Shown here in pieces: positions 6,354 to 22,427 of a stretch of 64,000 bases of DNA. The stretch lies in assembly GCA_027320085.1 (NCBI GenBank), contig DAHVLZ010000009.1:96001-160000 (forward strand). The letters are read 5' to 3'. Source of the DNA: Pseudomonadota bacterium (GTDB lineage: Bacteria > Pseudomonadota > Gammaproteobacteria > JAKAQQ01). Position 1 is the stretch's first letter. Each line of letters begins with the position of its first letter. A program made the position numbers and the translations under genes. The notes below the pieces were generated by a model that was given only the letters and a program-made list of their open reading frames with translations, made no database searches and was not told the origin of the DNA.

Positions 6354-8312
6354 TCAGTTCTCCCGGTGAGATGGAATCCGGTTCACCACCAAGGGGATCA
6401 CGACCCCACGGCCGGCTTCTTCTTCCCTAGGTTCCGCCCTGTGGAAATCCCCATGGGTCAGGCGGGTGAGCTCCCCGATCAGCTCCGTTCGGGTTGCGGG
6501 CATCAGCCGGGCAGACCAGAGTTCGAGATCCCGCTTGAGGGACGTCCAGTCCGAATGGGTTTCGCCCTGGGCCAAAAACAGCTTGGGATGGTCCGTCATC
6601 AGCCGACGCTCATTTTCATAGAAAAGCTGTTCCGCAAGTTTTTCGCCCGGGCGCAAGCCGATGTAGACAATCTCCATGTCGATCCCCAGGCGGTGGCCGG
6701 ACAGCTCGATCATTTGTTCCGCAAGATCCCGGATCCGAATGGGATTCCCCATGTCCAAGACAAAAATTCCAGCACCCAGGCGCGAGGTCGCAGCTTCGAG
6801 AACCAGGTGGACGGCCTCCGAGATGGTCATGAAGTAGCGCCTGACCTCGGGATGGGTGACAGTTACCGGGCCCCCGGCCTTGATCTGTGCCCGGAAGAGG
6901 GGGACCACCGATCCCATGGAATCGAGGACGTTGCCAAAACGGACGGTCATGAATTCCGTTCTGCCCTGTCCATTTAGGGCCAAAACGATCCGCTCGGCCA
7001 GCCGCTTCGTGGCGCCCATGATGTTCGCAGGCCAGACCGCCTTGTCGGTCGAAACCAGCATAAACCGGTCCACCGAATGGCGGATGGCCATTTCAGCCAT
7101 GTTCTTGGTCCCGAATACATTGTTCCGGATTCCGGCCACCGGATTTTCCTCGACCAAAGTCACATGTTTGTAGGCCGCGGCATGGAAAACCACCTCCGGG
7201 TGAGTCTCGCGGAACACACCATCCATCGCCTCGGCCGAGGTGACATCGGTTAGACGACCCTCGATCCGGGCTCCGGCCAGCGGACTCAGCTCGGCCAAGA
7301 TCCGGTAGAGATTGTATTCCGCATGATCCACGAGGATCAGCCGATCCACGCCAAGACTCAAGAGCTGACGGCAGATCTCGGAGCCTATCGAACCGCCGGC
7401 ACCGGTGACCAGGATCCGTTTCCCACCAAAAAAGTTCTGCAAGGCCGAAGACTGCATGACAACCGGTTCGCGCCCCAGCAAATCCTCGACCGAAACCGGT
7501 CTCAACCGCTCGACGGTAATCCGCTGGTTGATGAGTTCGCTCAGGCGGGGCAGCGTCCAGCAGGTCACCTGAAGAGTCTGACAGATCTGCACGACCTGCT
7601 GCAGGAGTCTCCGGGGTGCGGAGGGCATGGCGTAGATCACGATTTGAGCCCGCACCTCCTGGATGACCCTTGACAGTTCGTTGACCGTGCCGAGAACTGG
7701 CACTCCCTGGAGGGCACGACCCTGCTTGGCCGGATCGTCATCCACGAAAGCGACCGGCACATAGGTCCGGTCATCGCGCAGGTCGCGAAGCAGAAGCTCC
7801 GCCGCGACACCCGCTCCGACCAGAACCGCCCGCTGACCCGTCCTCTGGAAGAAAAGACCCCGTCGCTCCTTCCAGATGCGATACCCCAGACGGCCCGCCC
7901 CCAGGCCGATCAGCAACAGAAGGGGCTGCAGGACCAGAAAGCCCCGTGGCAGCCGTTCCAGGTCGTCGATGAAGGTGATCGCGCCCAGTGTGAGCAGCGC
8001 GCCCAAAGCCACCGCTTCCGTCAGACGGATGAGATCAGGCAATGAGGCAAAACGCCAGATCCCCCGGTAGCACTTGAGGGCGTACAGGCTCAGGCTCTGG
8101 CACAGGAAGGTCACGCCCAGGTAAACCCACCAGCGGGACTCCAGAGACAAGTCCGCGAGATGCCTCCAGTCGACCCGGACGATCAGCGCCAGCGGGACAC
8201 TGATGAGGATCCAGAGCGAATCGTGAAAGAAAACGGAGAGGCGAAGGACGGAACGGTTCCGCCACCAGGCCCGGGGCTCGAAAGGTCGCTCGGACAGAGA
8301 GGGGCGGGTCAC
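6354..8312 (-). CDS. CapD/WbpM/PglF-like membrane-bound UDP-GlcNAc 4,6-dehydratase
   Basis: Four N-terminal TM segments, GAGxAA, EDLLGR, TGAGGSIGSE, HAAAYKHV, STDKAV, MGATK, GLRPGEKL. GTG at 8312 gives a GTGA overlap with the upstream stop. Confidence 0.93.
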   Translation of the reverse strand: MTRPSLSERPFEPRAWWRNRSVLRLSVFFHDSLWILISVPLALIVRVDWRHLADLSLESRWWVYLGVTFLCQSLSLYALKCYRGIWRFASLPDLIRLTEAVALGALLTLGAITFIDDLERLPRGFLVLQPLLLLIGLGAGRLGYRIWKERRGLFFQRTGQRAVLVGAGVAAELLLRDLRDDRTYVPVAFVDDDPAKQGRALQGVPVLGTVNELSRVIQEVRAQIVIYAMPSAPRRLLQQVVQICQTLQVTCWTLPRLSELINQRITVERLRPVSVEDLLGREPVVMQSSALQNFFGGKRILVTGAGGSIGSEICRQLLSLGVDRLILVDHAEYNLYRILAELSPLAGARIEGRLTDVTSAEAMDGVFRETHPEVVFHAAAYKHVTLVEENPVAGIRNNVFGTKNMAEMAIRHSVDRFMLVSTDKAVWPANIMGATKRLAERIVLALNGQGRTEFMTVRFGNVLDSMGSVVPLFRAQIKAGGPVTVTHPEVRRYFMTISEAVHLVLEAATSRLGAGIFVLDMGNPIRIRDLAEQMIELSGHRLGIDMEIVYIGLRPGEKLAEQLFYENERRLMTDHPKLFLAQGETHSDWTSLKRDLELWSARLMPATRTELIGELTRLTHGDFHRAEPREEEAGRGVVIPLVVNRIPSHREN

Positions 8313-8911
8313 CCGCAAAGGAGTCGCCTCACGGTCGCGACCACGACGCAACAGTCGCTTATGGGGGTCCTCTGTGCAGCGTAGCGCAAATTCATGCGGA
8401 TTTTCCTTGGCATGAGGTGCTTAATATACGTCTTTTCCGGATCCGCAGAGCGAGCCAGGATCCGGCCTTCATGCCGGAACACGATGCTCGCGGGGTCAGT
8501 CAGCCCGGGCGGAGACTCAAGGACCAACCGTTCTTCGGGTCGGTAATGTGCCACGTAGCAGGCGAGTTCCGGTCTGGGCCCCACCCAACTCATCTCGCCA
8601 CGGATGATATTGAGGAGTTGGGGCCATTCATCCATCCGGCTCCGGCGCAGCCATTTTCCCACCCACGTGATCTGGGGATCGGCCGGAACCGTCAAACCGT
8701 TCCGGAATTGTCCCGCCGGGAGGCGGGTCATGCTGCGGAATTTGAACAGCGGGAAGACACCCCCCCCCTGACCGACCCGCTCCTGGATAAAAAAGACCGG
8801 TGGCCCATCCGTAACCAGGATAGCCAGCGCAACCAACAACCCCGGCGGCAGGAGCAAGAAACCTGCGAGCGCCGCGAGCAGGCGTTCACCTGGGGAGACC
8901 TTGCGCTTCAT
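8309..8911 (-). CDS. PglC/WbaP-like initiating phosphoglycosyltransferase (bacterial sugar transferase)
   Basis: FIQERVG, FKFRSM, LRRSRMDEWPQL, GEMSWVGPRPE, PGLT. Confidence 0.93.
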   Translation of the reverse strand: MKRKVSPGERLLAALAGFLLLPPGLLVALAILVTDGPPVFFIQERVGQGGGVFPLFKFRSMTRLPAGQFRNGLTVPADPQITWVGKWLRRSRMDEWPQLLNIIRGEMSWVGPRPELACYVAHYRPEERLVLESPPGLTDPASIVFRHEGRILARSADPEKTYIKHLMPRKIRMNLRYAAQRTPISDCCVVVATVRRLLCG

Positions 8912-10065
8912 ACTCCGTGTTGACGAACGATGTCCAAAACTGCGTCAATGACGTCACTGACATCAGTATCTGACAGCCTGGGGTGCAGTGGCAAGCTCAG
9001 GATCCGGCGATAGGCCCCATCCGCCTGCGGGAAGTCTTCGGGTCGGAAACCGTAGCGGTCCCGATAAAACGGATGGAGATGAAGCGGGATGAAATGGACG
9101 GATGCCCCGATTCGACGCCGTCCCAGCTCTTCCACAAACTGGTCCCGACCGATTGACAGGCAGTCCGGCCGCAGTCGGAGCGGATACAAGTGACGGGCAT
9201 GTCGGATCCCCTCACGCGCTTTCATCGGTTCCAGAGCCGGGCATTCCCCAAAGGCCCGATCGTAGGCCAGAGACACCGCGTCCCGCCGCTTCTGGAAGGA
9301 TTCCAGCTTTTTGAGCTGAACAAGGCCCATGGCTGCCTGGGGATCGGTCAGGTTGTATTTGAAGCCAGCGGCCTCGATTTCATAAAACCACGCCCCTCCC
9401 TGGTGATAGCGCTTCCACGCATCCCGGTTCATGCCGTGGAGGGCCAAGGGTCGAGCCCGTGCAATCCGGGCCTCGTCTCCGGTCAGCATACCGCCTTCAC
9501 CCGTTGTGAGATTTTTCGTGGCATAAAAACTGAACGCAGTAAAGTGTTTCTCCGATCCGATCGGGTGCCCTCGGTATTCTGCGGCCAGCGCATGGGCCGC
9601 ATCGAAGACAAGCGCCAACCCATGCCCCTCGGCGAGATCCTGAAATCGTTCCATCTCGACGGGATGCCCCGCAAAATGCACCGGCAGGATAGCCCGGGTT
9701 CGGGGCGTGATTGCCCGCTCGACAGCCTCGGGGTCGAGATTCAGGGTATCTGCCTCCACATCGGCGAAAACCGGGCGCGCACCCACATGTTCGATGACAT
9801 TGGCTGTCGCCGCAAAAGTAAAGGGCGTCGTCACGACCTCGTCCCCAGGCTTGATGCCCAAAGCCACGAGGGCCAGATGGAGGGCTGCGGTGCAGGAAGA
9901 AACGGCCAGGGCAGCCTCGGCATCCACCGTCTTGGAGAACGTGTCCTCAAACTCCCGGACCCGGGGGCCGAGCGTGAGCCATCCGCTTCGGAGTGCCTCG
10001 GTTGCGGCCTGGATCTCCTCTTCGCCGATCGCGGGTGGGGAAAAGGGCAGGAACGCTTCTCTCAT
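8908..10065 (-). CDS. DegT/DnrJ/EryC1/StrS PLP-dependent sugar aminotransferase (PglE/ArnB-like)
   Basis: MREAFLPFSPP, SGWLTLGP, SSCTAALHLAL, DAAHA, SFYATKNLTTGEGG, GFKYNL. In the sequence as given it is in frame with the upstream GT (810 aa ORF). Confidence 0.93.
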   Translation of the reverse strand: MREAFLPFSPPAIGEEEIQAATEALRSGWLTLGPRVREFEDTFSKTVDAEAALAVSSCTAALHLALVALGIKPGDEVVTTPFTFAATANVIEHVGARPVFADVEADTLNLDPEAVERAITPRTRAILPVHFAGHPVEMERFQDLAEGHGLALVFDAAHALAAEYRGHPIGSEKHFTAFSFYATKNLTTGEGGMLTGDEARIARARPLALHGMNRDAWKRYHQGGAWFYEIEAAGFKYNLTDPQAAMGLVQLKKLESFQKRRDAVSLAYDRAFGECPALEPMKAREGIRHARHLYPLRLRPDCLSIGRDQFVEELGRRRIGASVHFIPLHLHPFYRDRYGFRPEDFPQADGAYRRILSLPLHPRLSDTDVSDVIDAVLDIVRQHGV

Positions 10066-11340
10066 CCGGCATTCTCCAGGGCCAGGGCTCGCCTGAGTAT
10101 CGCACGACCCCCCCCCCCCGACACAGCGCTCGAACCAGACGCGTCCCGCACGACCCATGGTCCGGCAACGTTCCGGCTGAGCCTCGAGTTCCAGGAGGAG
10201 CCGGGCAAGCGTGGCGGCATCTCCTGAGGGGAGCCTGATCCCTCCACTGGATTCACGGAGAACGGTCTCACTATCGCCGGATCCCAGAAAGACGACTGGG
10301 CATCCCAACCCCAGATAATCGAAGAGCTTGCTGGGGAGAGCCGTCTGGAACAGGGGCGCTTCAGGAAACAAAAGAAGTCCCAGATCAGCCTCGCGAATGA
10401 GCGAACGCGCCTCCTGCCGCGTTAGAGGACCGGTAAAGCGGACCGGCAAACGCTCCCTCTCCGCACGCGCCCGGTAACCGGCTGCGCGCTCACCACCACC
10501 CACGAGAAGAAACACAATCCCCGTGTCGTGACCGATCTTCACAGCCGCGTCAAGGAGGGTATCCAGATCACTGGCCCGCCCCATGCTTCCGGCATAGATA
10601 ATCCGGAAACGGGCATCTCCCCAAGGAGATTCCGGAAGGTGACGGTGGGAGGTGTGGGTGGGGCTTGATCCGGGATCCAGGAGGAGTGCCGCGTCGGCGT
10701 TATAGAGAAGGCCCAACTTCTCATCCGGAACACCCTGTGCTTGGAGCGCCCGCTGGATCCCCGGAGTGGCACACAGAATGAACGCGGCCCGGCGTCGCAG
10801 CGCGCGCTGAAAGGCTGAAAGTCCACGACTGAGAAGACCAGGTTTCAAAACACCGAGCGCCAATGCGGTCTCGGGATAGAGGTCCCGCTCATCCAGGACC
10901 AGGCGCGCGCGAAAACGGCCAGCCACAGCCCAGGCCACGGGAGAAACCAGGACCGGGTCGGTTCCAACCAGCACAACGTCCGGTCTCTGCTTCATCCGGA
11001 TCAGCGCAGCCAGGAAACTCAAAGCAGCAAAGCGCGTGTAATGGATCAATCGTCGCCCCAGGCTTTTCCGGTAATCCACAAGCCCCGAGACCCTGAGGAA
11101 CCGGATTCCGTCTTGCTCACTCTCACTGCACCAGCCCCGACCATCTTTCCGCAGATCCTGGCCAGTCATATAGTGGATTGCCGACGTGATGACAGTGACC
11201 GAACATCCGAGGTCACGGAGCTGGCAGGCTTCCGCCCAGGGACGCACGGCCCCGGGTTCTTCCGGACGAGGACAGTGGAAGGTGAGGAAGAGGACGTGGA
11301 GCCTTCGGTCGGAAGCGCCATCCGACAGGCTAGGGGCCAT
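10062..11340 (-). CDS. GT4 family glycosyltransferase (WbuB-like); reads through into the DegT gene with the G12 tract as sequenced
   Basis: DERDLYPE, IIYAGSMG, GGGER, PSKLFDYL. A natural-looking end RAILRRALALENAG* at 10062 (ATGA overlap) is reached only with 11 G in the tract. Confidence 0.88.
10108..10119. repeat. C12/G12 homopolymer tract
   Basis: Twelve consecutive C on + strand; longest homopolymer I found in the window. Confidence 0.95.
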
Positions 11341-12436
11341 GGCCCGTCACGGCCACGTGGACCGCCCGAATCACGAGTCCAATTTCCGCCTCTCCCAGCC
11401 CATGGTGCACAGGAAGCGCAAGGATGGTTTCCGTGAGTCGCTCCGTCACGGGGAGCGAGACCTCACCGAGATGCTCGCGGATCACCGGTTGCTGGTGAAT
11501 TCCCCGCGGGTAGTGCACAGCAGTCGCAACCCCTTGTTTCGCAAGTCGTGCGGCCAGTGCATCCCGGTCGCACCCCATCACCCGCTCGTCCACAACCACC
11601 GAGTACTGATGCCAGGAGGACTCCGAGCCTTTAGGTTCGACCGGCAACTGCAGGCCGGGCACTCCATGAAGTCCGGCGGTCAGCTGGGAGGCATTCTGCC
11701 GTCGGCGCGCCAGCATCCCCTCCAGTCGCCCCAGCTGGGCATGCCCGATGGCCGCCTCCACGTCCGTCATTCGGTAGTTCCAACCGATCATCGTATGGAT
11801 GTACTTGGCTGTCTGACCATGCGTACGGAGATAACGCATCTTCCGGTCCAGCTCCGGATCCGGACTGGTCACCATCCCCCCTTCCCCGACGAAGAGGTTT
11901 TTCGTCGGATAGAAGGAGTAGCAGACACAGGCGCCGAGAGAGCCGATGTCCCGGCCACTGAACCGGGTCCCCATGGACTGGGCAGCATCCCAGATGATCC
12001 GCAAATTGTGTTCGGCCGCAAAGGACTCGATCGCATCGACCGGACAGGACGCACCAAACAGGTGGACCGGGACGATGCCCCGTGTTTTCGAGGTAAGACG
12101 CCGGGCCGCATCTTCCAGGTCAATCAGGTAGGTCCGGGGATCGACGTCACAAAGCACCGGGACCAGCCCCGTCTGCAGGGCCATGCTCGCTGTCGCAAAA
12201 AAGCTGAACGAGGGCATGAGGATCTCGTCTCCGGGCTCGAAGACGGCTGCATAGGCGAGGTGCAAGGCGGCGGACCCGTTGGCACAGGTCACTGCATGGC
12301 GGGCGCCGACCCGTTCGGCGAAAGTCCGCTCGAAACGGTCACATTCCACCCCCTGCCGGAGTTGTCCGGAGCGGAGTACTTGTAGGGCCGCCTCGATTTC
12401 GGGCTCAGCCAGGGTGGTGTCGGCCATGGGAATCAT
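11330..12436 (-). CDS. DegT family aminotransferase (WbpE-like)
   Basis: NGSAALHLA, PVHLFG, DAAQS, SFYPTKNL, GWNYRMTD, VHYP. Confidence 0.93.
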   Translation of the reverse strand: MIPMADTTLAEPEIEAALQVLRSGQLRQGVECDRFERTFAERVGARHAVTCANGSAALHLAYAAVFEPGDEILMPSFSFFATASMALQTGLVPVLCDVDPRTYLIDLEDAARRLTSKTRGIVPVHLFGASCPVDAIESFAAEHNLRIIWDAAQSMGTRFSGRDIGSLGACVCYSFYPTKNLFVGEGGMVTSPDPELDRKMRYLRTHGQTAKYIHTMIGWNYRMTDVEAAIGHAQLGRLEGMLARRRQNASQLTAGLHGVPGLQLPVEPKGSESSWHQYSVVVDERVMGCDRDALAARLAKQGVATAVHYPRGIHQQPVIREHLGEVSLPVTERLTETILALPVHHGLGEAEIGLVIRAVHVAVTGHGP

Positions 12437-13461
12437 CGGAGACTTGCCTCTCTCAGTTCTGGTTGCGAAACACTCGATTGAGCCAATCGATCGAGCAGGA
12501 GTTGGAGTTCGGCTGCTTCCGCCACCTGGCCGTAGGCCGGGTCTCGGTTCGCCCGGACGGCCTCCAGGAAAGTCCGGGCCTGGATCTGATATGGATCCTC
12601 CGGACCGGAGGGGGGACGGAGGGGGCTTGGGCCCGCGGGGTATCCGGCCCGTTCGCGGGACATAAACAGCTGAGACGGGAAGGTGGAGTCAATTGATGCA
12701 CGGATTCCTCCGTGAGGGCCCTCGATCTCGACCCATTGCGCAAATCCAGGTGTCAGAAAATCGGCCTCGAGAATCACGGCAGGCCCTTGGGGGTAGTCGA
12801 GACGGACCACCCAGAGATCATCGGCATCGACTGAAACCCTCTGCCCACCGATTTCCCGTTCCGGCTGGCGGAGATCCCGTACCAAAAGGCGGGCATCCTG
12901 AGGCGGTCCGAAAAACCAGAATGCAAGATCCAAGGCATGGACAAACATCTCGTTCGCGACCCCGCCGCCTTCGGCATGCCGATGTTTCCACGGCTGATGG
13001 GATCCCCTCCCCCCGATCCGGAAGAGGGCCAGATGGGGAGGGCCCAAGAGGGCCTCGTTCACGAGAAGACGCCTGACCTCTGCAAAGAGGGGAACCGAGC
13101 GATACAGAAATCCCACCATGCCGACCCCCCCTTTTTTCCGGAGACGCTCGGCCAGGTGCCGGGCTTCCCTCCCGCTTGGAGCCAGTGGTTTTTCCACAAG
13201 GAAGGCCTTCCCCGCATCCAAGGCTGCTTCGGCCAGGGGAACATGCGTCGGGGTCGGGGTCGTGATCACGACCGCCCGAATGGAATCGTCCCTGAACGCC
13301 GCATCGACCGTGAGGACCGACAATCCCTCCCGGTCGGCCAATGATTGGGCACGTTCGGGATCGATATCCGCGACCACCAGCTCAATTTCCGGTTCAATCC
13401 CGCGCAAACCGGCAATGTGGCGGGGTGCCTGCTTCCCGGCACCCAGGATCGCCAACCTCAC
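12433..13461 (-). CDS. Gfo/Idh/MocA family oxidoreductase (WbpB-like)
   Basis: ILGAG, TPTPTH, LVEKPL, GGGVANEMFVHALD. Confidence 0.88.
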   Translation of the reverse strand: MRLAILGAGKQAPRHIAGLRGIEPEIELVVADIDPERAQSLADREGLSVLTVDAAFRDDSIRAVVITTPTPTHVPLAEAALDAGKAFLVEKPLAPSGREARHLAERLRKKGGVGMVGFLYRSVPLFAEVRRLLVNEALLGPPHLALFRIGGRGSHQPWKHRHAEGGGVANEMFVHALDLAFWFFGPPQDARLLVRDLRQPEREIGGQRVSVDADDLWVVRLDYPQGPAVILEADFLTPGFAQWVEIEGPHGGIRASIDSTFPSQLFMSRERAGYPAGPSPLRPPSGPEDPYQIQARTFLEAVRANRDPAYGQVAEAAELQLLLDRLAQSSVSQPELREASLR

Positions 13462-14153
13462 GGGTGCGGATCCTCCGGGATCAGTCCTCTCCAGGAGAGG
13501 GCGAGGTTGCGTTCAAGAAGGGATTCCGGCAAAGGCTCGAAACGAGCCGGTACACCGCGGGCCAACATCCGGGGTGGCACATCCCGGGTGACTACAGCCC
13601 CTGCCGCCACAAAAGCATCCTCCCCGATCCGGACACCAGGACAGAGTGTGGCCCCACCCCCCACCGTCACGCCAGTCTCGAGAATAGGGCCCTCGGGGCG
13701 GTAGCGATCCCGCTGTTTCAGCGGGTAACGGTCATTGGTCATCACCACGCCCGGACCTACGAACACCCGTTCACCGATCCGGACCCGGGTCGGGATATAG
13801 CAGTGGGATTCGATCTTGACGAAGCTCGCAATCTCGACTTCACCGTCGATGATAGTTCCTGACCCAACGAGTACATGGTGGCCGATCCGGGTCTTTTCGC
13901 GAATAAGTACATGGTGGCCGGTTTGGAAATGATCCCCAATCAGCACATCAGCGTAGAGAATGGTACCCGACCGGATTCGGGCGCCGATGCCGAGCTGCAA
14001 CGGGGCCGCATCGTCGCGGTAACAATAGCCCACCACGCACCCGGGGTCGATCCGGGCATCAGCACCCACTTCGGCCCGGGGTTCCCTGGGAAGCGGAGCG
14101 GGGACACGGTGCCGCAAAGACTGCCTCTCTGACACGGGGATGCCACGAAACAA
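13458..14153 (-). CDS. hexapeptide-repeat N-acetyltransferase (WbpD-like)
   Basis: IG repeats, VFVGPGVVMTNDRYP, GATLCPGVRIGE, AGAVVTRDVP, GVPAR. Start uncertain. Confidence 0.9.
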   Translation of the reverse strand: MFRGIPVSERQSLRHRVPAPLPREPRAEVGADARIDPGCVVGYCYRDDAAPLQLGIGARIRSGTILYADVLIGDHFQTGHHVLIREKTRIGHHVLVGSGTIIDGEVEIASFVKIESHCYIPTRVRIGERVFVGPGVVMTNDRYPLKQRDRYRPEGPILETGVTVGGGATLCPGVRIGEDAFVAAGAVVTRDVPPRMLARGVPARFEPLPESLLERNLALSWRGLIPEDPHP

Positions 14154-14160
14154 GCCCGCG

Positions 14161-14237
14161 CATTATACCCGAACCCAACCCGAGTCTTTAGCCTTCCTAA
14201 GGTACCGCCGGGGGGGAACGGCAGGAATGCTATGATG
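14161..14237. promoter_or_regulatory. candidate divergent sigma70 -10 elements
   Basis: TATAAT on minus strand at 14162-14167; TGcTATGAT (extended -10 like) on plus strand at about 14228-14237. Confidence 0.45.
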
Positions 14238-15131
14238 CCATCGAGCCGAACCAATCTTGGATCCCACATGCCGGAAACCCCTAACGCCCCAAGCAACCGA
14301 GAGCCCGGAGAGAGCTTTGACCTGGTCGATCTGTGGATCCTTTTCCGGACCCGGGTCCTTGTGTTCTGGGGCACCGTCACACTTGCTCTGGCGGTCGGGA
14401 TCGGACTTGTCCTCTCCAGTACCCCGCAGTTCCGCTACACGGCGCTCATCCGCGTAGGCAGCCAGCGGATGGGGGAACGGTTTGTCCCGGTCATGCCGAC
14501 CCCACTCGTACGAAGCTGGATCATCCATTCGGTGGCCCCTCTCTCGGCCCTCCAGCTCAGTAAAAACCTCCCTGAGGCCCAAGCCATCGAAACCCGCCTC
14601 GAGGTCTCTCCGATCGTGCGTGGATCGGGTGTACTGCTTCAGGTGAACGGCACCCAGACCCAATCGAAAACGATTCAAGCCCTTTTCGCCGCGATCGGTC
14701 AACACGTTGAGCAAAGCACCAACGCCCATCTGGTGGCACAAGAGGAAAAATCCAGCCGGATCCTCAAAGCTGAGATCCAAAGCATTAAAAGGGAGATCGG
14801 AGTCTTCCAGGCCCAACAAAAACGAGTTGGACACCGAACAGCTTCTCTCAACCGGCGTGCACAGTTCGATGAGATCGAGTTTTTAGCTCTTGAAATCAGC
14901 AATTTGGAGCGTCAGAAAATCCACTTGGAGCAACTTCTCGCCCGACCGACCGACCGCTTGACAGAGCTTTTGGGCCCGGTCAGCCGGTCCCCGGGTCCTG
15001 TCGGTCTCACCCCGATCAAGAAGGTCGGCATCTTTTTGCTCCTTGGGGCGGTTTTAGGAGCGGCTTTGGTCATACTGCTGCATCTTCGGGATCAAGCCCG
15101 GAAACGCTTGCGAAAGCAGGCCGGTTCCTAA
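14232..15131 (+). CDS. Wzz-like polysaccharide chain-length determinant
   Basis: FDLVDLW, N-terminal TM followed by PQFRYTALI, central coiled coil, Pro-rich segment then Gly-rich C-terminal TM (LLGAVLGAALV). Confidence 0.8.
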   Translation: MMPSSRTNLGSHMPETPNAPSNREPGESFDLVDLWILFRTRVLVFWGTVTLALAVGIGLVLSSTPQFRYTALIRVGSQRMGERFVPVMPTPLVRSWIIHSVAPLSALQLSKNLPEAQAIETRLEVSPIVRGSGVLLQVNGTQTQSKTIQALFAAIGQHVEQSTNAHLVAQEEKSSRILKAEIQSIKREIGVFQAQQKRVGHRTASLNRRAQFDEIEFLALEISNLERQKIHLEQLLARPTDRLTELLGPVSRSPGPVGLTPIKKVGIFLLLGAVLGAALVILLHLRDQARKRLRKQAGS

Positions 15132-15292
15132 AGCAACCGGGTTTTATACCACCAAGGATGGAAGAGAGTTCATGGGTGTTCGGCTGGGCAACGGGGGGAA
15201 AGAGGCCAGTGCCCCTTCGTGACCAAATCCCGAACTGTCTCCGGTAACCCTTCGCCCGACCCCAGGCTCTTCGAGTACCGGGTACTGACCGA

Positions 15293-16435
15293 TCAACTCT
15301 CGCCAATCACGGAAAGCGCACAATCGACGATTCGCTCCGCTGCATGCCCATCCCCAAACGGCTCTTTCCAGTCCACCTGGGCACTGAGAGCCTGGGAGGC
15401 CCCAGCCACGATACGGTCCGGATCGGTGCCGACCAGCCGGTTGGCCCCTATTTCGATCGTCTCCACCCACTCGGTATTTTCACGGAGGGTTACACAGGGA
15501 ATCCGATGGATACACGCTTCCTGCTGCACCCCGCCGGAGTCAGTCAGAACCAAGCCCGCGCGGGAAAGCAGGGCAAGAAACTCGAGGTACCCGCTTCCGG
15601 GGCGGATGTCGACCCGATCCAGGGAATGCACCCACTCCTCGAGGCCGAATTCCCGCAAGCGTTTAAGCGTTCTTGGGTGCGCGAGACAGAGCACCGTGAG
15701 GTCGAGCGCCTCGGCAACATGTGCGACCCCGGTGAAAATCCCGCGCAGGCGAACCGGATCATCCACGTTCTCTTCACGGTGAGTCGTGAGGATTGCATAA
15801 GAGTGCCCGTCATCCCGGGCCCGCCGATCTGGTTGACCGAACCGTCTGAGGGCCAGCGCCAGATGGGCCCGAGAGGCATCCACGATCGGATTCCCCGTCT
15901 CGATGATCTTGCCCCGCACGGACTCTCGCTCGAGCTGACGTCCCGCCTTGGACGAGGAGGTAAACAAGTACTCGGAGATGTGATCGATGATCCGGCGATT
16001 GTGCTCCTCCGGCATGCACCAGTCGTAGGAGCGTTCACCCGCCTCCACATGTCCCACCCGGATGCCCAGTTTGCGGGCCGCCAAGGCGCCGGCGAGGTTC
16101 GTGTTGGCATCCCCTCCAACCAGCACCAAACGAGGTTTCCGTTCGAGCAAGACCTGCTCGACCCCTTCCAGCATGGCTGCGGTCTGACCCCCATGCGTCG
16201 GTTTTTCGGACACTCCTTCCAGCCGGTAATCGGGTACAGGCAACTCCAGATCCGAGAAGAACTGGGCATCCATGTTCGGCGAGTAATGTTGCCCCGTATG
16301 GATGACGAAATGGGCTCCAGCTTTTTTCCTCAGATGGGTGATGATAGGCGCAAACATCACGATGCCCGGCCGGGTTCCCACCACCACTCCGACCTCGGGC
16401 CGAAGCACTTCTGGACGCAATACTTTTTCACTCAT
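15293..16435 (-). CDS. non-hydrolysing UDP-GlcNAc 2-epimerase family (WecB/WbpI-like)
   Basis: GTRP, HTGQHYS, HVEAG, MPEEHNR, TGNP, HREEN, TDSGGVQQEA, RENTEW. Confidence 0.93.
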   Translation of the reverse strand: MSEKVLRPEVLRPEVGVVVGTRPGIVMFAPIITHLRKKAGAHFVIHTGQHYSPNMDAQFFSDLELPVPDYRLEGVSEKPTHGGQTAAMLEGVEQVLLERKPRLVLVGGDANTNLAGALAARKLGIRVGHVEAGERSYDWCMPEEHNRRIIDHISEYLFTSSSKAGRQLERESVRGKIIETGNPIVDASRAHLALALRRFGQPDRRARDDGHSYAILTTHREENVDDPVRLRGIFTGVAHVAEALDLTVLCLAHPRTLKRLREFGLEEWVHSLDRVDIRPGSGYLEFLALLSRAGLVLTDSGGVQQEACIHRIPCVTLRENTEWVETIEIGANRLVGTDPDRIVAGASQALSAQVDWKEPFGDGHAAERIVDCALSVIGES

Positions 16436-17675
16436 GTTTCACCTCGTGGGCTTCGGATCCATCTTTCAGACATTGCTGCAACCACGGCCGGATTTCACTG
16501 GCGGCCCGTTCCCAGTTGTAGATCTCCTCGAAAGCCTGGCGGGCATGACGCCGGAAGCGGCTCAAACGGTCTGGCTCGGCGAGCAGTTCGCCGAGAACCT
16601 GGGCCACAGCCTCGGGGCTTGCCGTATCGACCAAAACACCGCAATCGGTCTCCACCACCGCACGACCGATCTCGCCGAAACGCGGCGCGAGGATGGCCAT
16701 CCCGGTCTGCATATAGGTGAAAATCTTGCGGCCATTTAAGGCACCCACCTTTTTGTACAGAGGTGACTCCGGCTGATGCAGAGCCAGACCGATCTCCGCA
16801 CCCGCGATTCGAGCAAGCATTTCCCGGTAAGACAATGGAGGCGAGATCTCGACCTGATCCGTCAATCCCAGCCCGTTCATGCGCTCCGTGAGTGCGGGGG
16901 TCCAGCCGGGCCCGACCAGAAGCAGGGTGAGGTTCGGAAAATGCGGTTTGAGCAAGACCAGTGCCTGAAGCGCAACGCCGATCCCTTTGCGTTCGAGAAG
17001 TCCACCGACGTAACAGATCACCCGGCGCCCGGTCTTCCCCTCTGGCCCAATCCTGGATTTCCAGGGACCGTCATCGGCCAGGGCGGGGAGGTTCGGCACC
17101 ACCCGGACGGAGTCGTTGAAACGCCGAAGCTGGGTCTCGAACCAGCCGCCACGAGAGTCCACGGCAAAAATCCCTCGCATCGGTCGGAGTGCCAGACCTT
17201 CGAGCCATCGCAGCAAAGGCCAGGTCACGGATCCCAAGGGACCGAAGTAACGCGACACATCCCAGGCGTAATATTCCGCACTATCGTAAAACCAGCTCGC
17301 GCGCGTGAAGCGCCAGACCAGGGGCAGTTGGAAAAGATGGGTGGCCACCAGGATGGGCGGCCGGGATGCGGATCGGGTCTCTTCCCGGATGATCCGTGAG
17401 AGGGCCCGCCAGTAGCGGGGCATGGCCAAAAGCAGACGCGCACTCTCAGTCGGTGCGCGGAGATGGACAGTTGCGAGGACTGCCTTTTGATCCGGCATAC
17501 CCAGGCTGCCCGGCAAGCGATCCCAGACCACAAAACCGGGGGCTTCCCCGATATTCTCAAACAGGCGGAAAGTATTCCATTGCCGTGGCGTGGGCGTGAC
17601 GTTGAAACAGAGGATGATCACCCGTCTCTTGTTCAAGATCGTCTCATGGTTCCCATGCCGTTCCGCGTGCGGCAT
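16428..17675 (-). CDS. GT4 family glycosyltransferase
   Basis: YVGGLLERKGI, LLVGP, KIFTYMQTG, YNWE. Start uncertain. Confidence 0.85.
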   Translation of the reverse strand: MPHAERHGNHETILNKRRVIILCFNVTPTPRQWNTFRLFENIGEAPGFVVWDRLPGSLGMPDQKAVLATVHLRAPTESARLLLAMPRYWRALSRIIREETRSASRPPILVATHLFQLPLVWRFTRASWFYDSAEYYAWDVSRYFGPLGSVTWPLLRWLEGLALRPMRGIFAVDSRGGWFETQLRRFNDSVRVVPNLPALADDGPWKSRIGPEGKTGRRVICYVGGLLERKGIGVALQALVLLKPHFPNLTLLLVGPGWTPALTERMNGLGLTDQVEISPPLSYREMLARIAGAEIGLALHQPESPLYKKVGALNGRKIFTYMQTGMAILAPRFGEIGRAVVETDCGVLVDTASPEAVAQVLGELLAEPDRLSRFRRHARQAFEEIYNWERAASEIRPWLQQCLKDGSEAHEVKHE

Positions 17676-18838
17676 TCCGCGACAGCCTCGGCGTAAACCG
17701 ACGAGATCTGGTCTGTCACCGTCGTCCATCCAAACCGGGATTGGGCCTCCCGTGAAATCGCCTCCCGATCCCAACTCCGCCCGACGATCTCCCGCATGGC
17801 GGAACCCAGTTCAGAAACCGCACCCGCCGGTACGAGAAGACCATTTTGGCCCGGTTGGATCAGTGAGATCAATGCGGGAATCGCGCTTCCGATGACCGGC
17901 GTTCCACAACACAGGCTTTCCAGGACCGTGACCGGATTCCCCTCCCCGTAGGAGGGAAGAATGAAGCAATCGGCAGCTGCGAGGTATTGCGATACGCTCT
18001 CGTGGGACTGCCATCCCCGCAGGATGAGCCGACCTTCCGAGTGACGGGCCCGCCGCTCGAGATCGGCCCAGAGGGATCCGGTTCCCGCGAGGAGCAATCG
18101 CGCTTTTTCCGGGGCCGAGGAAAAAAAGGCACGGACAATATCCGCGACGCCCTTGGCAGGCTCCAGATTGCCAAGGAAAAGGAACAGAGGCCCTTCCTGC
18201 GGCAAGTCCAGCGCATGACGGGTGGCTTCTCGCGCCATCGGCCTGAAAAGACGAGTCTCCACACCATTTGGAATGATCCGCATCCGTCCGGGATCAGCTC
18301 CAAGTCCTTCCAGGGGGGCACGAAAATAGTCGGCGACTACGATGATCCGGGTGGCGCGTTCCACAACCGTGCGTGCCGTGGAGCGGTAGGCGGCCTGGCC
18401 AAGGTCCCGGTACACGTCACCGGCATGAGCGGTCACAACGGTGGGGATGGGTGCATCGCCAACCGCGCGGATCGCGGCCAGACCGGGTGGGCTCAGCCAA
18501 TGGGCATGAATGAGATCGTAGGGGATCCCACCGGAAAACAACTCCCGTCGGGCGAGCGCGGCAAGCTCGCGGCTGCGGACCCGACGATTCCGCGGAACAT
18601 AAAGGTAGGCAGGACGTTTCACGGTCGCGGGCAGAACGCCGGTGAAGGTGGTTTGGGCCTCCAGATTCCGCGCACGCGATTCCAGCCAGCGGGAGGGAAT
18701 GCACGGCAACCAGGGGCGCGGGAACAGCACCGTAATCTCATGACGACCGGCAAGAGCCGTGACCTGGGCCCGGATGAAAATCCCCCGTCCCGGGTGTTCC
18801 GCCGTCGGGAAGGTTTCGGTCAGGACCAGGACACGCAT
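17633..18838 (-). CDS. GT4 family glycosyltransferase
   Basis: MRVLVLTETFP, DLIHAHW, IIPNGV, LGNLEPAKG, PSYGEGNPVTVLESLCCGTPV (EX7E). Confidence 0.92.
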   Translation of the reverse strand: MRVLVLTETFPTAEHPGRGIFIRAQVTALAGRHEITVLFPRPWLPCIPSRWLESRARNLEAQTTFTGVLPATVKRPAYLYVPRNRRVRSRELAALARRELFSGGIPYDLIHAHWLSPPGLAAIRAVGDAPIPTVVTAHAGDVYRDLGQAAYRSTARTVVERATRIIVVADYFRAPLEGLGADPGRMRIIPNGVETRLFRPMAREATRHALDLPQEGPLFLFLGNLEPAKGVADIVRAFFSSAPEKARLLLAGTGSLWADLERRARHSEGRLILRGWQSHESVSQYLAAADCFILPSYGEGNPVTVLESLCCGTPVIGSAIPALISLIQPGQNGLLVPAGAVSELGSAMREIVGRSWDREAISREAQSRFGWTTVTDQISSVYAEAVAECRTRNGMGTMRRS

Positions 18839-18845
18839 GGACCGG

Positions 18846-20110
18846 TCAGTCGCTGGGAGCGGGAGCGCGCGGAACCACAAGCGTCCGCCATGCGGATGCC
18901 ACCAACAAAGCCAGTAGAAACCAGAGGAAACGATCACGCTGCGTGCCGAGTGCAAGGGATTGCACGGCACTGGCGAGGGCCGCCACCCAAAGGCCCGTGT
19001 GATGGAAGTAGGACTCACGATTTGGGGATATACGCAGGCGGGAGTGGGCACGCCAACCTAGCCAGAATATGATCCCCCCAGCCACGACGAGTGCCAGGAG
19101 GGAGGGGATCCCGCTTTCATCCTGAACTGCGATCCACAGGTTGTGGGGGCCCTGTTTGGGCTTGGAGATCGGAAAGGGAAGATAAGGAGGCATATCGGCA
19201 CTGACATTAGCCGGACCCACCCCCCAAAGGGGATGGGATGCGGCCATCGCGATCCCGCCGAGTGCAAGGTTCAAGCGCTCGGATCCGACCGCCCCGATGG
19301 AATGCTCCGACCGGACGATCTGGGTGTTGATCCGTTCGAGATAGACGCCCCCGGCAGCCAGCACGATGATCGAGAAAAGTCCCAGGGTGAGCGCCAGGAG
19401 AGTTCCGCTCCGTCTTCCGGCCTGCGGAAACAGAAACCAGGCAACCAGGGCCAGAACCACGAGAAGCCCGATCAGCCCCCCGAGTGAAACGGTCCGGCCA
19501 ATTCCCCAGACAAGCACCAACGAGACGAGCAGTGCGAGGACCTTGCGGGCGGCCTTCCGTTCGGTGGCAACCCAGGCCAAGGCCAGGGCGAGACCGATGT
19601 TGAACGCGAAAGCGGTGAGGTTGGGGTCGCCGATTCCCGCACCCGCCCGAAGAATGAAGCCATGTGTGAGATCTTCCACCCAGAGCACATGGCCCAGAAA
19701 CTCAAGGCTTCCACTCACCATCATGAAAGCAAGGACGGCCAAGGCAGCAGGCAGCAGCTTCGCCAGGTTTCTTCCAAGACCCGGATCATCCACACAGATC
19801 TGGACCAGAACGAAAAACAGGATGAGACGGGCGAGGTAGGCGCCACAGAGGGCCAGGGAGATGGGTCGACCAGGCGAGACCCAGGATGAAACCAGGACCA
19901 GCCCGAAAAATACGGACAGGGACAACCAGAGAAGGCTCAGGTTTCCACCGACGGCCGGCATGCGTCCGTTCCGGCCCAGAACCCAGGCCAAGCTCATCCC
20001 CAAGGTCAAAAGCGGAACGAGAAGCGGGTGCCCTGCCACCGCCAGGGGTTTAAGGAGCTTCGCGGGCACACAAAGCGCCACAGTCAAGGCATAGACAACA
20101 AGCCGGACCC
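18846..20110 (-). CDS. O-antigen ligase/polymerase (Wzy_C) family membrane protein
   Basis: About 11-12 hydrophobic segments, GDPNLTA, SLGG, ERL, HPLWGVG, PHNLW. Start codon unclear (see findings). Confidence 0.8.
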
Positions 20111-20157
20111 ACAGGGGTCCTCGATGAAAGGGTTGATCGGGTCGGACCCGGGGGGCC

Positions 20158-21303
20158 TCACCAGCGGACACGGGGATAGATCCGCTCGCTGTCAATCCGG
20201 TTTTTATGGGGCAGAATCCGTTCCAGCATGCTGCAGAGGACCTCCTCGGTGATGGGATGCAGCCTGAGTCCCAGTTCAAGCAGACCGCTGTGCGCTGGCT
20301 GGTAGAAATGCTCTTCCGCTTCCTTGCGGGGATTTTCAAGGTGCTGGATTTCGACCCGGAGTCCCAACGACTTTCCGGCCCGCTGAACCCAGGCGGCCAG
20401 GTCATTGACCGTGAAGCATTCCGTAAACTGGTTGAGGATACGGAGCTGACCCTTCCCGGGTGGGTGGGTTGCAGCCAGCTCGACGCATTGGAGTGTGTCC
20501 AGGAGGTTGAGATAACCCCGGGTCTGTCCGCCCCGTCCATAGACGGTCAGGGGAATGCCGGCGACCGCCTGAACCAGAAATCGGTTGACAAGCGTTCCGA
20601 ACAGGTCGTCGTAATGAAAATTCGGAAGCAAGCGCTCATCCCGATCCGCCTCAGGCGTCGACAGACCGTAGACCGGTCCCTGCATGAGGTCCGTCGCCTG
20701 GAGATTCCACATCCGCACGTAGAACCAGATCAAGTCTGTATCCATGATTTTCGTGGTGTGATAGAGACTTCCGGCCTGCCGCGGGTAGAGAAAACGATCA
20801 CGACGCCCCTTGTGCTCGATTTCGATCCAGCCCTCTTCGATCTCGATGGCTGGAGTCCCGTATTCACCCATGGTCCCGAGCTTGATCAGGTGGCACGACG
20901 GGGCAGCTTCCCGTAGGGCCCAGATCACATTCAGTGTTGTGGCGAGATTGTTGCGTAACGTGAGTGACGCCTCGGCATACCCCCGCATGGAATAGGGCGC
21001 CGAAGGCTGCTCTGCATAATGGATGACCACCTCGGGCCGGGTCTCCCGAAAAACCGATTCGAGGAACGGATAATCCGCACAGTCGCCAATCCGCACCGCG
21101 ACTTCGCACCCGGTCACTTGCCGGAAGATTCCCACCCTCTGCTCAAGGTCCGGCGCATCGATCAGGGGTTCAGACCGCGTCTGCAGGGCCAGGGTGCGCC
21201 GCAGGTAGTTATCGACCACCGTCACTCCATGCCCCCGGGCTGCAAAATGCATGGCGGTCGGCCAGCCGAGATAGCCATCCCCTCCGAGAATCAGGATGCG
21301 CAT
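20158..21303 (-). CDS. sqdB: UDP-sulfoquinovose synthase family (SqdB/SQD1/Agl3-like)
   Basis: GGDGYLGWPTA, HYAEQPSAPYSM, HLIKLGTMGEYGTP, GSLYHTTK, TDLMQGPVYG, YDDLFGT, NQFTE, NPRKEAEEHFY. Confidence 0.93.
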   Translation of the reverse strand: MRILILGGDGYLGWPTAMHFAARGHGVTVVDNYLRRTLALQTRSEPLIDAPDLEQRVGIFRQVTGCEVAVRIGDCADYPFLESVFRETRPEVVIHYAEQPSAPYSMRGYAEASLTLRNNLATTLNVIWALREAAPSCHLIKLGTMGEYGTPAIEIEEGWIEIEHKGRRDRFLYPRQAGSLYHTTKIMDTDLIWFYVRMWNLQATDLMQGPVYGLSTPEADRDERLLPNFHYDDLFGTLVNRFLVQAVAGIPLTVYGRGGQTRGYLNLLDTLQCVELAATHPPGKGQLRILNQFTECFTVNDLAAWVQRAGKSLGLRVEIQHLENPRKEAEEHFYQPAHSGLLELGLRLHPITEEVLCSMLERILPHKNRIDSERIYPRVRW

Positions 21304-22427
21304 GGCTTCCCTTCCGGAGCACCCTCACGGGACAGGACAGGAATCAGCCCGATCTCCTCCAAGAGTCGGCGCAGGGCTTCGGGATCAAGCCGAGGCTCAT
21401 CTCGGGAGACATAGGGGTGATCCACACGGTGACGGATGACTTGGGGATAGTCGTAGACGATTCCCTGGTAAAGCGGGCGGAATGCCGGAAGCACCACAAA
21501 AAAGTCCCGAAGTTCACACGTTCGCATCGTTTCCGATTCGGTCATGAGTTCCTCCATGAGTTTCTCGCCGGGTCGTGGACCTGTTTGGAGCACCTCGATG
21601 GACTCGGGACGGTACCCCTGACCGGGCGCCAGTGCCTCGATCATGACCCGTGCCAAATCCTCAATCGCCACCACGGGCATTTTTGTGATGAAAACCTCGC
21701 CGCCCCGCGCCAGGGGTACGGAGCACAGCACCAGCCGGACCGCCTCATCGATGCTCATGACGAAACGGGTCATCTCGCGGCTGGTCAGTGTGAGGGGGCC
21801 ACCATGGGCAATCTGGCTGGCAAAAATTTCCGTGACCGAACCCCGGGAACCCAGGACATTGCCAAACCGGGTGGAAGCAAAGACCGCGCCCCCGCCATTG
21901 GCATTGGCGGCGGTAATGAGGCGCTCACCCATGAGCTTCGAGGTCCCCATGACGTTGGTCGGATTGACCGCCTTGTCCGAACTCGTGAAGAGCACACGGG
22001 AAACCCCCACCTCGGAGGCGGCCTGGATCACGGACTCGACCCCCAGGATATTCGTCCGCATCGCTTCAAAAGGCGCCTTCTCACACTGATAGACGTGCTT
22101 GTAGGCCGCACAGTGCAAAACCGTGTCAGCGCCGGCAAAAAGACGCCTCAGGGAAGATTGGTCCCGGACGTCGCCCAGTAGGAAACGGGCCCGCGGTTCG
22201 TCCATCCAGCGGGCCTCCATCCTGAAAATCCCATCCTCATTGTTGTCGATACCCAAAATCGTGCCACGAAAGGCTTGTGCCGGATCCAAAAGACGCCGGA
22301 CCAGCTGTCGTCCGAGCGTCCCACAACAGCCGGTGACCACAACCTTACGGGCTTGCTGCCAGTACGCAGCAATGACATCCGGACCGGTTGAGCCTGAGGT
22401 TTTCTGTTCTCCCCCTCCCCGTTTCAC
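21291..22427 (-). CDS. soluble UDP-GlcNAc 4,6-dehydratase family (FlaA1/PseB/CapE-like)
   Basis: TGCCGTLG, GDVRD, AAYKHV, SSDKAVNPTNVMGTSK, RFGNVLGSRGSV, RPGEKL. Confidence 0.9.
   Translation of the reverse strand: MKRGGGEQKTSGSTGPDVIAAYWQQARKVVVTGCCGTLGRQLVRRLLDPAQAFRGTILGIDNNEDGIFRMEARWMDEPRARFLLGDVRDQSSLRRLFAGADTVLHCAAYKHVYQCEKAPFEAMRTNILGVESVIQAASEVGVSRVLFTSSDKAVNPTNVMGTSKLMGERLITAANANGGGAVFASTRFGNVLGSRGSVTEIFASQIAHGGPLTLTSREMTRFVMSIDEAVRLVLCSVPLARGGEVFITKMPVVAIEDLARVMIEALAPGQGYRPESIEVLQTGPRPGEKLMEELMTESETMRTCELRDFFVVLPAFRPLYQGIVYDYPQVIRHRVDHPYVSRDEPRLDPEALRRLLEEIGLIPVLSREGAPEGKPCAS

Follow-up and report, generated by a model that had tools for sequence, protein, structure and literature searches.

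A dehydratase-SqdB gene pair at the head of a surface-glycan cluster in a gammaproteobacterial genome: candidate enzymes for a C6-sulfonated UDP-sugar

We analyzed a 64-kb stretch of DNA (hereafter, the window) from an uncultured Pseudomonadota bacterium of the gammaproteobacterial lineage JAKAQQ01. It corresponds to positions 96,001 to 160,000 of contig DAHVLZ010000009.1 (G000:C1:96001-160000) in assembly GCA_027320085.1, which comprises 2.14 Mb in 47 contigs and is 96% complete. DNA of the host was contained in four DNA runs of one study, all labelled mine drainage metagenome, of which two may be the source of the assembly, and no RNA run was listed. Genes were called from open reading frames (ORFs), Pfam profiles, NCBIfam profiles with their curated cut-offs, and relatives of solved structure. 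By these means, a train of minus-strand genes was found to span positions 22427 down to 4541, and these genes probably form a Wzy-type cluster for a surface glycan, either an O-antigen or a protein glycan. An earlier description based on the letters alone (the sequence-only reading) had pointed to an SqdB-family gene in this cluster, and all the genes that it named were present on the minus strand at the positions it gave. The present analysis concerns that gene and the one in front of it, a dehydratase of the Polysacc_synt_2 family predicted to act on UDP-N-acetylhexosamine (UDP-HexNAc):

21291..22427, minus strand: CapD/Pen-like soluble UDP-HexNAc dehydratase of the Polysacc_synt_2 family, which opens the operon and is the conserved partner of SqdB (PF02719, 280.9 bits)
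20158..21303, minus strand: short-chain dehydrogenase/reductase (SDR) of the SqdB/SQD1 family, Pro-101 branch, 381 amino acids, probable C6-sulfonating UDP-sugar synthase (NF041015, 435 bits)

The SqdB protein matched the UDP-sulfoquinovose synthase model NF041015 over its full length (E 2.3e-130), with a score below the curated cut-off of 575 bits. This model appears to be narrow, as only one of 14 control genomes passed its cut-off. Against Arabidopsis SQD1 (1qrr), residues 2-381 aligned with residues 3-382 at ~50% identity (E 5.4e-119). The window protein kept the G-x-x-G-x-x-G motif together with T144-M-G-E-Y and Y181-H-x-x-K, which correspond to Thr145, Tyr182, Lys186, the [ST]MG element and His183 of SQD1, the catalytic motif of the family as given in a review (PMC8987622). 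T-M-G-E-Y and Y-H-x-x-K were invariant across 25 aligned members. Also kept were E148 and Y149, which the Agl3 authors proposed for dehydration (PMC4388408).

The genome offered no obvious sulfolipid transferase for this enzyme. A search of the assembly (96% complete) for glycosyltransferases of family GT8, to which SqdD belongs, gave no match; the sequence-only reading had seen no recognizable sqdC or sqdD in the cluster. The SqdX-like family 4 glycosyltransferase (GT4) of locus L030, from the same class, had no close homologue in the window genome, where the best matches were 32% identical over 112 residues and 30% over 176 residues. A recognizable sulfolipid transferase was likewise not seen beside SqdB genes of the Pro-101 branch. 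Since neither a GT8 of SqdD type nor a close SqdX-like homologue was found, the window SqdB does not look like a sulfolipid enzyme; together with its glycan setting, this bears out what the sequence-only reading had supposed.

One pocket residue sets the protein apart. The motif E-Q-R101-S-A-P of SQD1 reads E-Q-P-S-A-P in the window protein, in which Pro100 occupies the position of Arg101. Agl3 also has Arg here, and the R101A exchange leaves that enzyme without activity (PMC4388408). To place this residue more widely, we drew on a species-level scan (one genome per species) that detected 276 SqdB relatives, of which the best 79 were analyzed as loci. Represented among them were Desulfobulbia, Bacteroidales, Cyclobacteriaceae, Phycisphaerae, Acidobacteriota, Gemmatimonadaceae, Anaerolineales, Rubrobacteraceae, Magnetobacteriaceae, Saccharibacteria, and Alpha- and Gammaproteobacteria. 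Cultured carriers of the gene pair include Microbulbifer agarilyticus (L086), Parahaliea aestuarii (L092), Cocleimonas flava DSM 24830 (L109), Tamilnaduibacter salinus DSM 28688 (L111) and Desulfoferrobacter suflitae (L038). Pro was found at the Arg101 position in 83 of 83 proteins (all 79 loci, three loci of the host family and the window protein), and Arg was found in SQD1, Agl3 and five relatives from the same class (35-43% identity). In a wider set of 106 full-length sequences, made up of 87 cluster representatives and 19 loci, 80 had Pro, 22 had Arg and 4 had another residue.

A clean division into a Pro clade and an Arg clade was rejected by the tree, in which Pro requires at least 10 changes, and well-supported branches make six of these unavoidable. 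The representative closest to plant SQD1 falls in an Arg clade that is nested next to sequences of the Pro type. The window protein groups, with good support, in a set of 11 that also includes proteins of Acidobacteriota, Actinomycetota, Bacteroidota and Alphaproteobacteria. This mixture of phyla suggests that the Pro-101 SqdB gene has spread horizontally. Position 101 of SQD1, five residues after a conserved His, is presumably equivalent to Gly102 of WbpP. A study on WbpP lists Gly102 among the active-site residues that contact the sugar nucleotide and reports that acetylated substrates were used no less when a bulkier residue took its place (bioRxiv 10.1101/2020.05.26.111013). Position 101 is a marker of the sugar pocket that does not by itself predict an N-acetyl substrate.

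Links to a sulfolipid-type GT4 partner were seen among Arg-type enzymes: the Arg-type SqdB of L030 is overlapped by its SqdX-like GT4, and P0319 is an Arg-type SqdB fused to a GT4. Two further Arg-type genes from genomes of the same class stood beside other genes: that of L033 (7903-11203) beside an adenosine 5'-phosphosulfate (APS) kinase gene and Ugd, and that of L032 (7047-12194) beside a WecA-type transferase, ManC and a phosphomannomutase. From these two, some Arg-type enzymes may also serve glycans.

The dehydratase gene overlaps SqdB by 13 nt (21291-21303), confirming the overlap noted by the sequence-only reading; its TGA lies inside SqdB codons 4-5, and a purine-rich stretch is found just upstream. 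We counted as a partner any CapD-like gene with at least 40% identity. Such a gene lay within 400 bp of SqdB in 49 of the 79 loci, where it preceded SqdB on the same strand in 40 cases, was divergent in 6 and lay downstream in 3, and it was found within 10 kb in 11 more, giving 60/79; it was absent from 10 loci with flanks of at least 1.5 kb, and in the other 9 the flanks were too short. When all 1146 neighboring ORFs were clustered without prior choice, CapD was again the leading family (61/79), followed by DegT (23), WecB (12) and the oxidoreductase (11). Twelve of the 35 measurable same-strand pairs overlapped, and 13 were spaced by 0-30 nt. Pairwise identities of SqdB and its partner were correlated (r=0.57 over 253 pairs; 0.54 without the window family), a value to which relatedness alone contributes.

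The same association was seen in the host family, which was represented by 10 genomes from three genera. SqdB and the partner were both present in seven and both absent in two, and in the remaining genome, the one mismatch, the SqdB gene lies where its contig ends. All three genera kept the order dehydratase-SqdB-(Wzy)-TuaC-like GT4, even where protein identity was 43-60%. All 79 loci sit among polysaccharide genes, and every annotated Pfam-matching neighbor family belongs to polysaccharide synthesis. The best-supported partner of SqdB is therefore the overlapping CapD/Pen-like dehydratase. The sequence-only reading had given this gene no role; its proposal involved a Gfo/Idh/MocA oxidoreductase, a DegT aminotransferase and a hexapeptide acetyltransferase further along the cluster (hereafter, the trio).

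The partner scored below the cut-offs of both related models, PseB (238.7 bits; cut-off 407.75) and FnlA (200.1 bits; cut-off 730). Its best solved relatives were 6bwc (225 bits), FnlA 4j2o (186) and FlaA1 2gn4 (177). The first of these is Pen of Bacillus thuringiensis, a UDP-N-acetylglucosamine (UDP-GlcNAc) 5,6-dehydratase, and UDP-sulfoquinovose synthase without sulfite is also a 5,6-dehydratase (PMC8987622). Instead of the Y-x3-K dyad of PseB and Pen, the partner has M160-x3-K164, which resembles the T-D-K...M-x3-K pattern given for PglF (PMC8987622); M-x3-K and S-D-K, the latter being the [ST]-D-K acid/base pair of these dehydratases, were invariant in 23 partner sequences.

We also searched the genomes of the 10 partnerless loci. 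Two had a partner-level copy (48% identity) on another contig, L095 had an adjacent copy at 39-40%, just below the threshold, and the genomes of L105, L106 and L108 had generic relatives alone (37-45%). The order in L108 is NeuB-NeuC-NeuA-SqdB-PF02719 dehydratase-SDR-GT, and sulfotransferases adjoin SqdB in L106 and L074.

Fusion proteins provide weak evidence for the pair. In a listing of 120 long relatives, P0282 was the single case of a true PF02719 domain (320 bits) linked to SqdB, through an irregular junction that is possibly a frameshift. P0274, P0278 and P0315 have PF02719 in their precomputed domain lists but were rejected as fusions of this kind, their second domain being a GalE/UXS-like SDR. 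In 22 of the 120, the SqdB-like domain is fused with a DegT aminotransferase. In the four of these that were compared, the DegT part was 50-53% identical to the DegT half of a fusion protein in the window (see below), and the three with a readable pocket motif (P0337, P0346 and P0358) had Pro. Six of the 120 combine an SqdB-like domain with a class-V aminotransferase (cysteine desulfurase type); four such fusions from the representative search (P0226, P0230, P0239 and P0251) had Cys or Ser at the Arg101 position. Many SqdB-family proteins of 700-850 residues (P0124, P0135, P0194, P0234, P0259 and others) carry an intein with a LAGLIDADG endonuclease in the SDR domain.

Genes that could supply sulfite were found near some of the loci and in the window genome itself. 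CysH-like genes were present in L035, L052, L082 and L083, and Sat/CysC-like genes in L069, L085, L109 and L083, so that sulfate-activation or sulfite-forming genes were nearby in 7 of the 79 loci combined. In L035, which belongs to the host family, the gene is an orthologue of the window genome's CysH (61% identical) and lies on the same contig, ~2 kb beyond WecB. The window genome encodes a CysH above the curated cut-offs and an ATP-sulfurylase protein of 610 residues with matches to APS-kinase genes in its C-terminal part (Sat-CysC fusion). The coordinates given for the CysH and Sat-CysC pair are G000:C14:2125-2853 and C1:78822-79466. The sulfite-reductase domains PF01077 and PF03460 had no match in the 96%-complete assembly, and the presence of CysH and Sat-CysC without such a match means that sulfite may not be made for assimilation.

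Downstream of the pair, and on its other side, the following genes were identified:

18846..~20087, minus strand: Wzy_C-family membrane protein, polymerase or ligase type (PF04932, 44.1 bits)
17633..18838, minus strand, ATG at 18838: GT4 glycosyltransferase, TuaC-like (PF13692, 94.6 bits; PF00534, 89.5 bits)
16428..~17636, minus strand: second GT4 glycosyltransferase (PF00534, 44.3 bits)
15293..16435, minus strand: WecB-type non-hydrolysing UDP-HexNAc 2-epimerase (TIGR00236, 323.5 bits, cut-off 210.15; PF02350, 316.3 bits)
14232..15131, plus strand: Wzz-like chain-length regulator, oriented against the operon (helix layout; weak PF02706)
13458..14153, minus strand: left-handed beta-helix N-acetyltransferase (hexapeptide; QdtC/WlbB-like; PF00132, 75.9 bits)
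12433..13461, minus strand: Gfo/Idh/MocA oxidoreductase, candidate sugar 3-dehydrogenase (PF01408, 70.1 bits)
11330..12436, minus strand: DegT-family sugar aminotransferase (PF01041, 384.4 bits)
8908..11340, minus strand: fusion of an N-terminal GT4 and a C-terminal PseC/ArnB-like C4 aminotransferase, 810 residues (Pfam)
8309..8911, minus strand: small PglC/WbpL-type initiating phosphoglycosyl transferase (Bac_transf; PF02397, 142.1 bits)
6354..8351, minus strand: WbpM/PglF-type membrane UDP-GlcNAc 4,6-dehydratase (PF02719, 354.6 bits, plus CoA_binding_3)
5433..6314, minus strand: rmlA (TIGR01207, 482.6 bits, above cut-off)
4541..~5452, minus strand: rmlD, start refined (TIGR01214, 284.4 bits, above cut-off)
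22564..24321, plus strand: second protein of the Wzy_C family, similar to WaaL or an oligosaccharyltransferase and divergent from the operon (PF04932, 49.5 bits)

As called, the ORFs of Wzy, the GT4s and rmlD reach far into the genes upstream of them. Comparison of starts with relatives indicated that these ORFs were over-extended upstream, and the overlaps were dismissed. In the case of the Wzy_C gene at 18846, relatives aligned from residue 145-149 of the long ORF, and the start was moved from 20540 to a TTG at 20087. The TuaC model matched the first GT4 at 158.6 bits, below its cut-off, and copies of this gene in L022-L028 were 43-80% identical. The second GT4 was 49-81% identical to copies in L022-L025, and the Agl16 model matched it at 43 bits. 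Relatives of the divergent Wzy_C protein aligned over 551-583 of its 585 residues. With this gene conserved nearly full length, the opposite ORF at 22345-23109 (minus strand) was rejected as an antisense shadow.

The Wzz-like ORF has a predicted hydrophobic helix at each terminus and a long polar middle, and its PF02706 match was weak (E 0.001, 19.8 bits, below cut-off). ORF 14163-14834 (minus strand), which has a low-complexity translation, was not accepted as a gene and is probably its antisense shadow. A terminator-like site lies at 15121-15140. As the Wzz-like gene is on the plus strand, the trio and SqdB fall in different transcription units. In a scan for promoters and terminators, promoter-like sites were fewer than in shuffled sequences, and the scan left transcription units undefined.

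In the fusion protein, PF13579 and PF13692 matched residues 38-385, and PF01041 matched residues 437-801 (409.5 bits); the PseC (371.3 bits) and ArnB (369.7 bits) models both scored below their cut-offs. The same fusion order was kept in L050 and L047. In the acidobacterial L050 the fusion lies at 14845-17349, and its halves are 40% and 49% identical to those of the window fusion. No Wzx flippase was found in the cluster. The sole strong Wzx-type flippase of the genome (G000:C31:10094-12525, L134) stands beside a UDP-galactopyranose mutase gene (Glf), which suggests a second glycan locus there.

The sequence-only reading had set the trio beside WbpB/E/D and proposed that SqdB may replace WbpA and so feed it. 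At the level of families, counterparts of WbpE, WbpD and WbpI are present: the DegT aminotransferase matched WbpE (3nyu) at 201.5 bits and QdtB at 194.2 bits. Closer matching did not hold for all members. The acetyltransferase was nearer to QdtC (3fs8, 106.8 bits) than to WlbB (3mqg, 66.4 bits), and no WbpB/WlbA was among the solved relatives of the oxidoreductase at E<=1e-10; its best solved relative was 6nor (83.7 bits), and a model of archaeal UDP-GlcNAc 3-dehydrogenases gave 51.4 bits. In the sister genus, homologues of the oxidoreductase (G004:C36:77520-78524 and G006:C98:3894-4892) have one in-frame TGA each. Judged from these matches, a fair reading is that the trio would carry out C3 amination and acetylation.

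The trio was complete in 11 of the 79 loci (L047, L048, L050, L055, L060, L066, L076, L079, L084, L091 and L096), six of which also had WecB, and it was absent from the other 68. Its acetyltransferase was conserved at the orthologue level in all 11 (53-68% identical). In L050 (Acidobacteria), a single block of WecB-CapD-SqdB-acetyltransferase-oxidoreductase-x-DegT holds almost the whole gene set of the window, including the GT4-DegT fusion. No WbpA/TviB-like gene was found in the fetched flanks of the 11 loci, so the neighborhoods agree with the sequence-only reading in this subset. A TviB-like gene does lie directly beside SqdB in L052 and L057.

The absence of a UDP-GlcNAc 6-dehydrogenase from the cluster was confirmed, with no nucleotide-sugar dehydrogenase anywhere in the 64-kb window. 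The genome as a whole has two full-length enzymes of this kind, one Ugd-like on C8 and one TviB/WbpA-like at C29:45965-47179, which scored 497 bits with NF011729 (cut-off 592). The latter (L008 12936-14222) overlaps gspN, with which a type II secretion operon closes; after it come an SDR gene, kdsB and lpxK. The TviB/WbpA-like gene was kept in 9 of the 10 family genomes, including G002 and G007 (86% and 80% complete), in which no SqdB, CapD-like partner or oxidoreductase was found. Because it is retained regardless of the trio, this gene looks like a family-wide housekeeping gene and not a companion of the trio. A WbpA-like gene, which the sequence-only reading had named as a possible refutation should it feed the trio, thus exists in the genome, and its distribution neither clearly ties it to the trio nor clearly refutes the proposal.

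Taken together, we give about an even chance to the reading that the two-gene cassette makes a C6-sulfonated UDP-sugar, probably based on HexNAc, for a Wzy-type surface glycan. The first two genes would form a mobile cassette in which a CapD/Pen-like UDP-HexNAc dehydratase is translationally coupled to an SQD1-family enzyme. The latter appears to keep the machinery for C4 oxidation, 5,6-elimination and C6 addition, and we infer that it would add sulfite at C6 of a UDP-sugar. This sugar is more likely to be derived from UDP-GlcNAc (6-sulfo-N-acetylquinovosamine type) than to be plain UDP-glucose, because Pro replaces Arg101 and because, to our knowledge, all studied members of the partner's dehydratase family act on UDP-GlcNAc. 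The HexNAc-based sulfosugar of the sequence-only reading is plausible on these same grounds. The two enzymes may act in either order: the partner may pass a 5,6-ene or 4-keto intermediate on to SqdB, in the manner of Pen and Pal, or may instead rework the sulfonated product. Sulfite could come from the genome's own Sat-CysC and CysH. The likely transferase for the cassette sugar is the TuaC-like GT4, found after SqdB and Wzy across the whole family.

Several observations weigh against this proposal. Apart from the lack of clean Pro and Arg clades, just positions 18 and 100 separate the Pro set from the Arg set, and position 100 is circular in that it defines the sets. The lost Arg is essential in Agl3, so that sulfite addition itself could be altered, and the sugar-pocket argument leans on the motif register that we assumed. 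Since E148 and Y149 are kept, SqdB should need no separate dehydratase. In some alphaproteobacterial loci the CapD-like gene stands beside DegT, like an ordinary 4,6-dehydratase feeding an aminotransferase, and the pair could then serve two separate sugars. The sulfur genes are also equivocal: CysH was detected in four of the eight SqdB-bearing family genomes, and not in G001, G003, G005 and G008, so that the idea of a dedicated sulfite source co-varying with SqdB was half borne out (it was found in neither of the two family genomes without SqdB). The nearby APS-kinase genes could serve O-sulfation instead. A literature search turned up no assay of any member of the Pro-101 branch.

A simpler product, plain UDP-sulfoquinovose, would be placed by a GT4 into the O-antigen as sulfoquinovose, with the CapD-like gene separately making a 6-deoxy-HexNAc for the same repeat unit. 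The ~50% identity to SQD1, the intact catalytic residues and the mere two positions that differ systematically from Arg-type enzymes would fit, as would the CapD genes beside DegT. There is also a precedent for sulfoquinovose in a glycan, in Sulfolobus Agl3 (PMC4388408). We nevertheless consider this rather unlikely, for it leaves unexplained why a CapD-like companion recurs in 60/79 loci across phyla, often overlapping, and why Pro stands in all 83 members in place of an Arg essential in Agl3; moreover, a membrane-type UDP-GlcNAc 4,6-dehydratase is already encoded at 6354-8351. Use of UDP-sulfoquinovose for the sulfolipid sulfoquinovosyldiacylglycerol, with a neighboring GT4 acting as SqdX, is highly improbable. 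SqdX is indeed a GT4 and two GT4 genes are close by, but neither a GT8 nor a close homologue of the L030 GT4 was found in the genome, and SqdB lies between a dehydratase and Wzy inside a glycan operon.

Sulfonation itself might have been lost. The Pro-101 branch could have given up sulfite addition and turned into a 4-keto reductase or epimerase, a Pal-like processor of a 5,6-ene, or an enzyme adding another nucleophile. The missing Arg would be consistent with this, and pathways of the N-acetylquinovosamine/N-acetylfucosamine type usually combine a dehydratase with a second SDR. The SqdB-DegT (C4-type) fusions hint that some members hand on a 4-keto sugar. We regard such a loss as unlikely, because M146, E148, Y149 and H183 (SQD1 numbering) are invariant across phyla and a simple reductase would not need them; the sulfite-forming or sulfate-activating genes in 7/79 loci also speak against it. 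The replacement of WbpA put forward by the sequence-only reading, in which the trio oxidizes, aminates and acetylates the sulfonated UDP-HexNAc at C3 and WecB epimerizes it at C2, is in our view doubtful, and equally doubtful is its product, the 6-sulfonate analogue of 2,3-diacetamido-mannuronate. Its best support lies in the 11 trio loci with their WbpA-free flanks, the six with WecB, the single block of L050, and the housekeeping appearance of the family's TviB-like gene. Many of these 11 are related Alphaproteobacteria and not independent, however, and the trio is missing from most loci. In the window it sits in another transcription unit, with an oxidoreductase not close to solved WbpB/WlbA, and a TviB/WbpA-like enzyme is available in the genome, as it is directly beside SqdB in two loci. 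Trio-type enzymes can also use UDP-GlcNAc without a C6 acid, as in archaeal and lipid A pathways. Action of the trio on a sulfonated substrate is possible. The specific route in which the cassette makes UDP-6-sulfo-N-acetylquinovosamine and the trio and 2-epimerase convert it to a 2,3-diacetamido-2,3,6-trideoxy-6-sulfo-hexose, also in the syntenic clusters of Acidobacteria and Alphaproteobacteria, likewise seems to us a doubtful prospect.

Sugars that bear a carbon-bonded sulfonate occur in photosynthetic membrane lipids and in a small number of N-glycans of archaea. In a literature search that left subscription journals largely uncovered, neither the gene pair nor a bacterial polysaccharide containing sulfoquinovose or a sulfoquinovosamine was found described. 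In a 2026 review on sulfoquinovose cycling, a term look-up did not find the words polysaccharide, glycoprotein or lipopolysaccharide. If the cassette makes a sulfonated sugar, many non-photosynthetic bacteria from at least ten phyla would be an unrecognized source of organosulfonate, and one pocket residue would mark a second activity within the SQD1 family, possibly specific for HexNAc. A strong-acid group that stays charged in acid habitats would then be part of bacterial surface glycans; were the WbpA-replacement product real, the O-antigen of this mine-drainage bacterium would stay charged at very low pH. The question of the cassette can be tested directly with two genes and commercial substrates.

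The cluster can be compared with several known systems. WbpA/B/E/D/I form the route to UDP-2,3-diacetamido-2,3-dideoxy-mannuronate in Pseudomonas and Bordetella. The window likewise has a Gfo/Idh/MocA oxidoreductase, a DegT aminotransferase, a beta-helix acetyltransferase and a WecB-type epimerase, but its cluster differs in the points already given (no 6-dehydrogenase, no solved WbpB/WlbA relative of the oxidoreductase at E<=1e-10, and an acetyltransferase nearer to QdtC). A PglF/PglE/PglC-type module makes 4-amino-4,6-dideoxy-HexNAc priming sugars, and here a membrane PF02719 dehydratase, a PseC/ArnB-like aminotransferase and a small Bac_transf are adjacent at 6354-11340; unlike that module, the window has its aminotransferase fused to a GT4, and no second acetyltransferase was evident.

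With SQD1, SqdB and Agl3 (EC 3.13.1.1), the window SqdB shares the extended-SDR family, the catalytic motifs and, for SQD1, ~50% identity, and as with Agl3 it stands in a glycan rather than a lipid pathway. It differs in having Pro for Arg101, in a score below the curated family cut-off, and in being coupled to a Polysacc_synt_2 dehydratase, not to SqdX/SQD2, SqdD or Agl16. Pen and Pal of Bacillus thuringiensis constitute a two-enzyme route via UDP-6-deoxy-GlcNAc-5,6-ene (PMC8987622). Here the second enzyme is SQD1-like, with no Pal among its solved relatives, the partner has M-x3-K in contrast to Y-x3-K in Pen, and no pseudaminic-acid genes follow. What the two arrangements have in common is a PF02719 dehydratase and then a second SDR, which in the window would act on an ene or keto intermediate.

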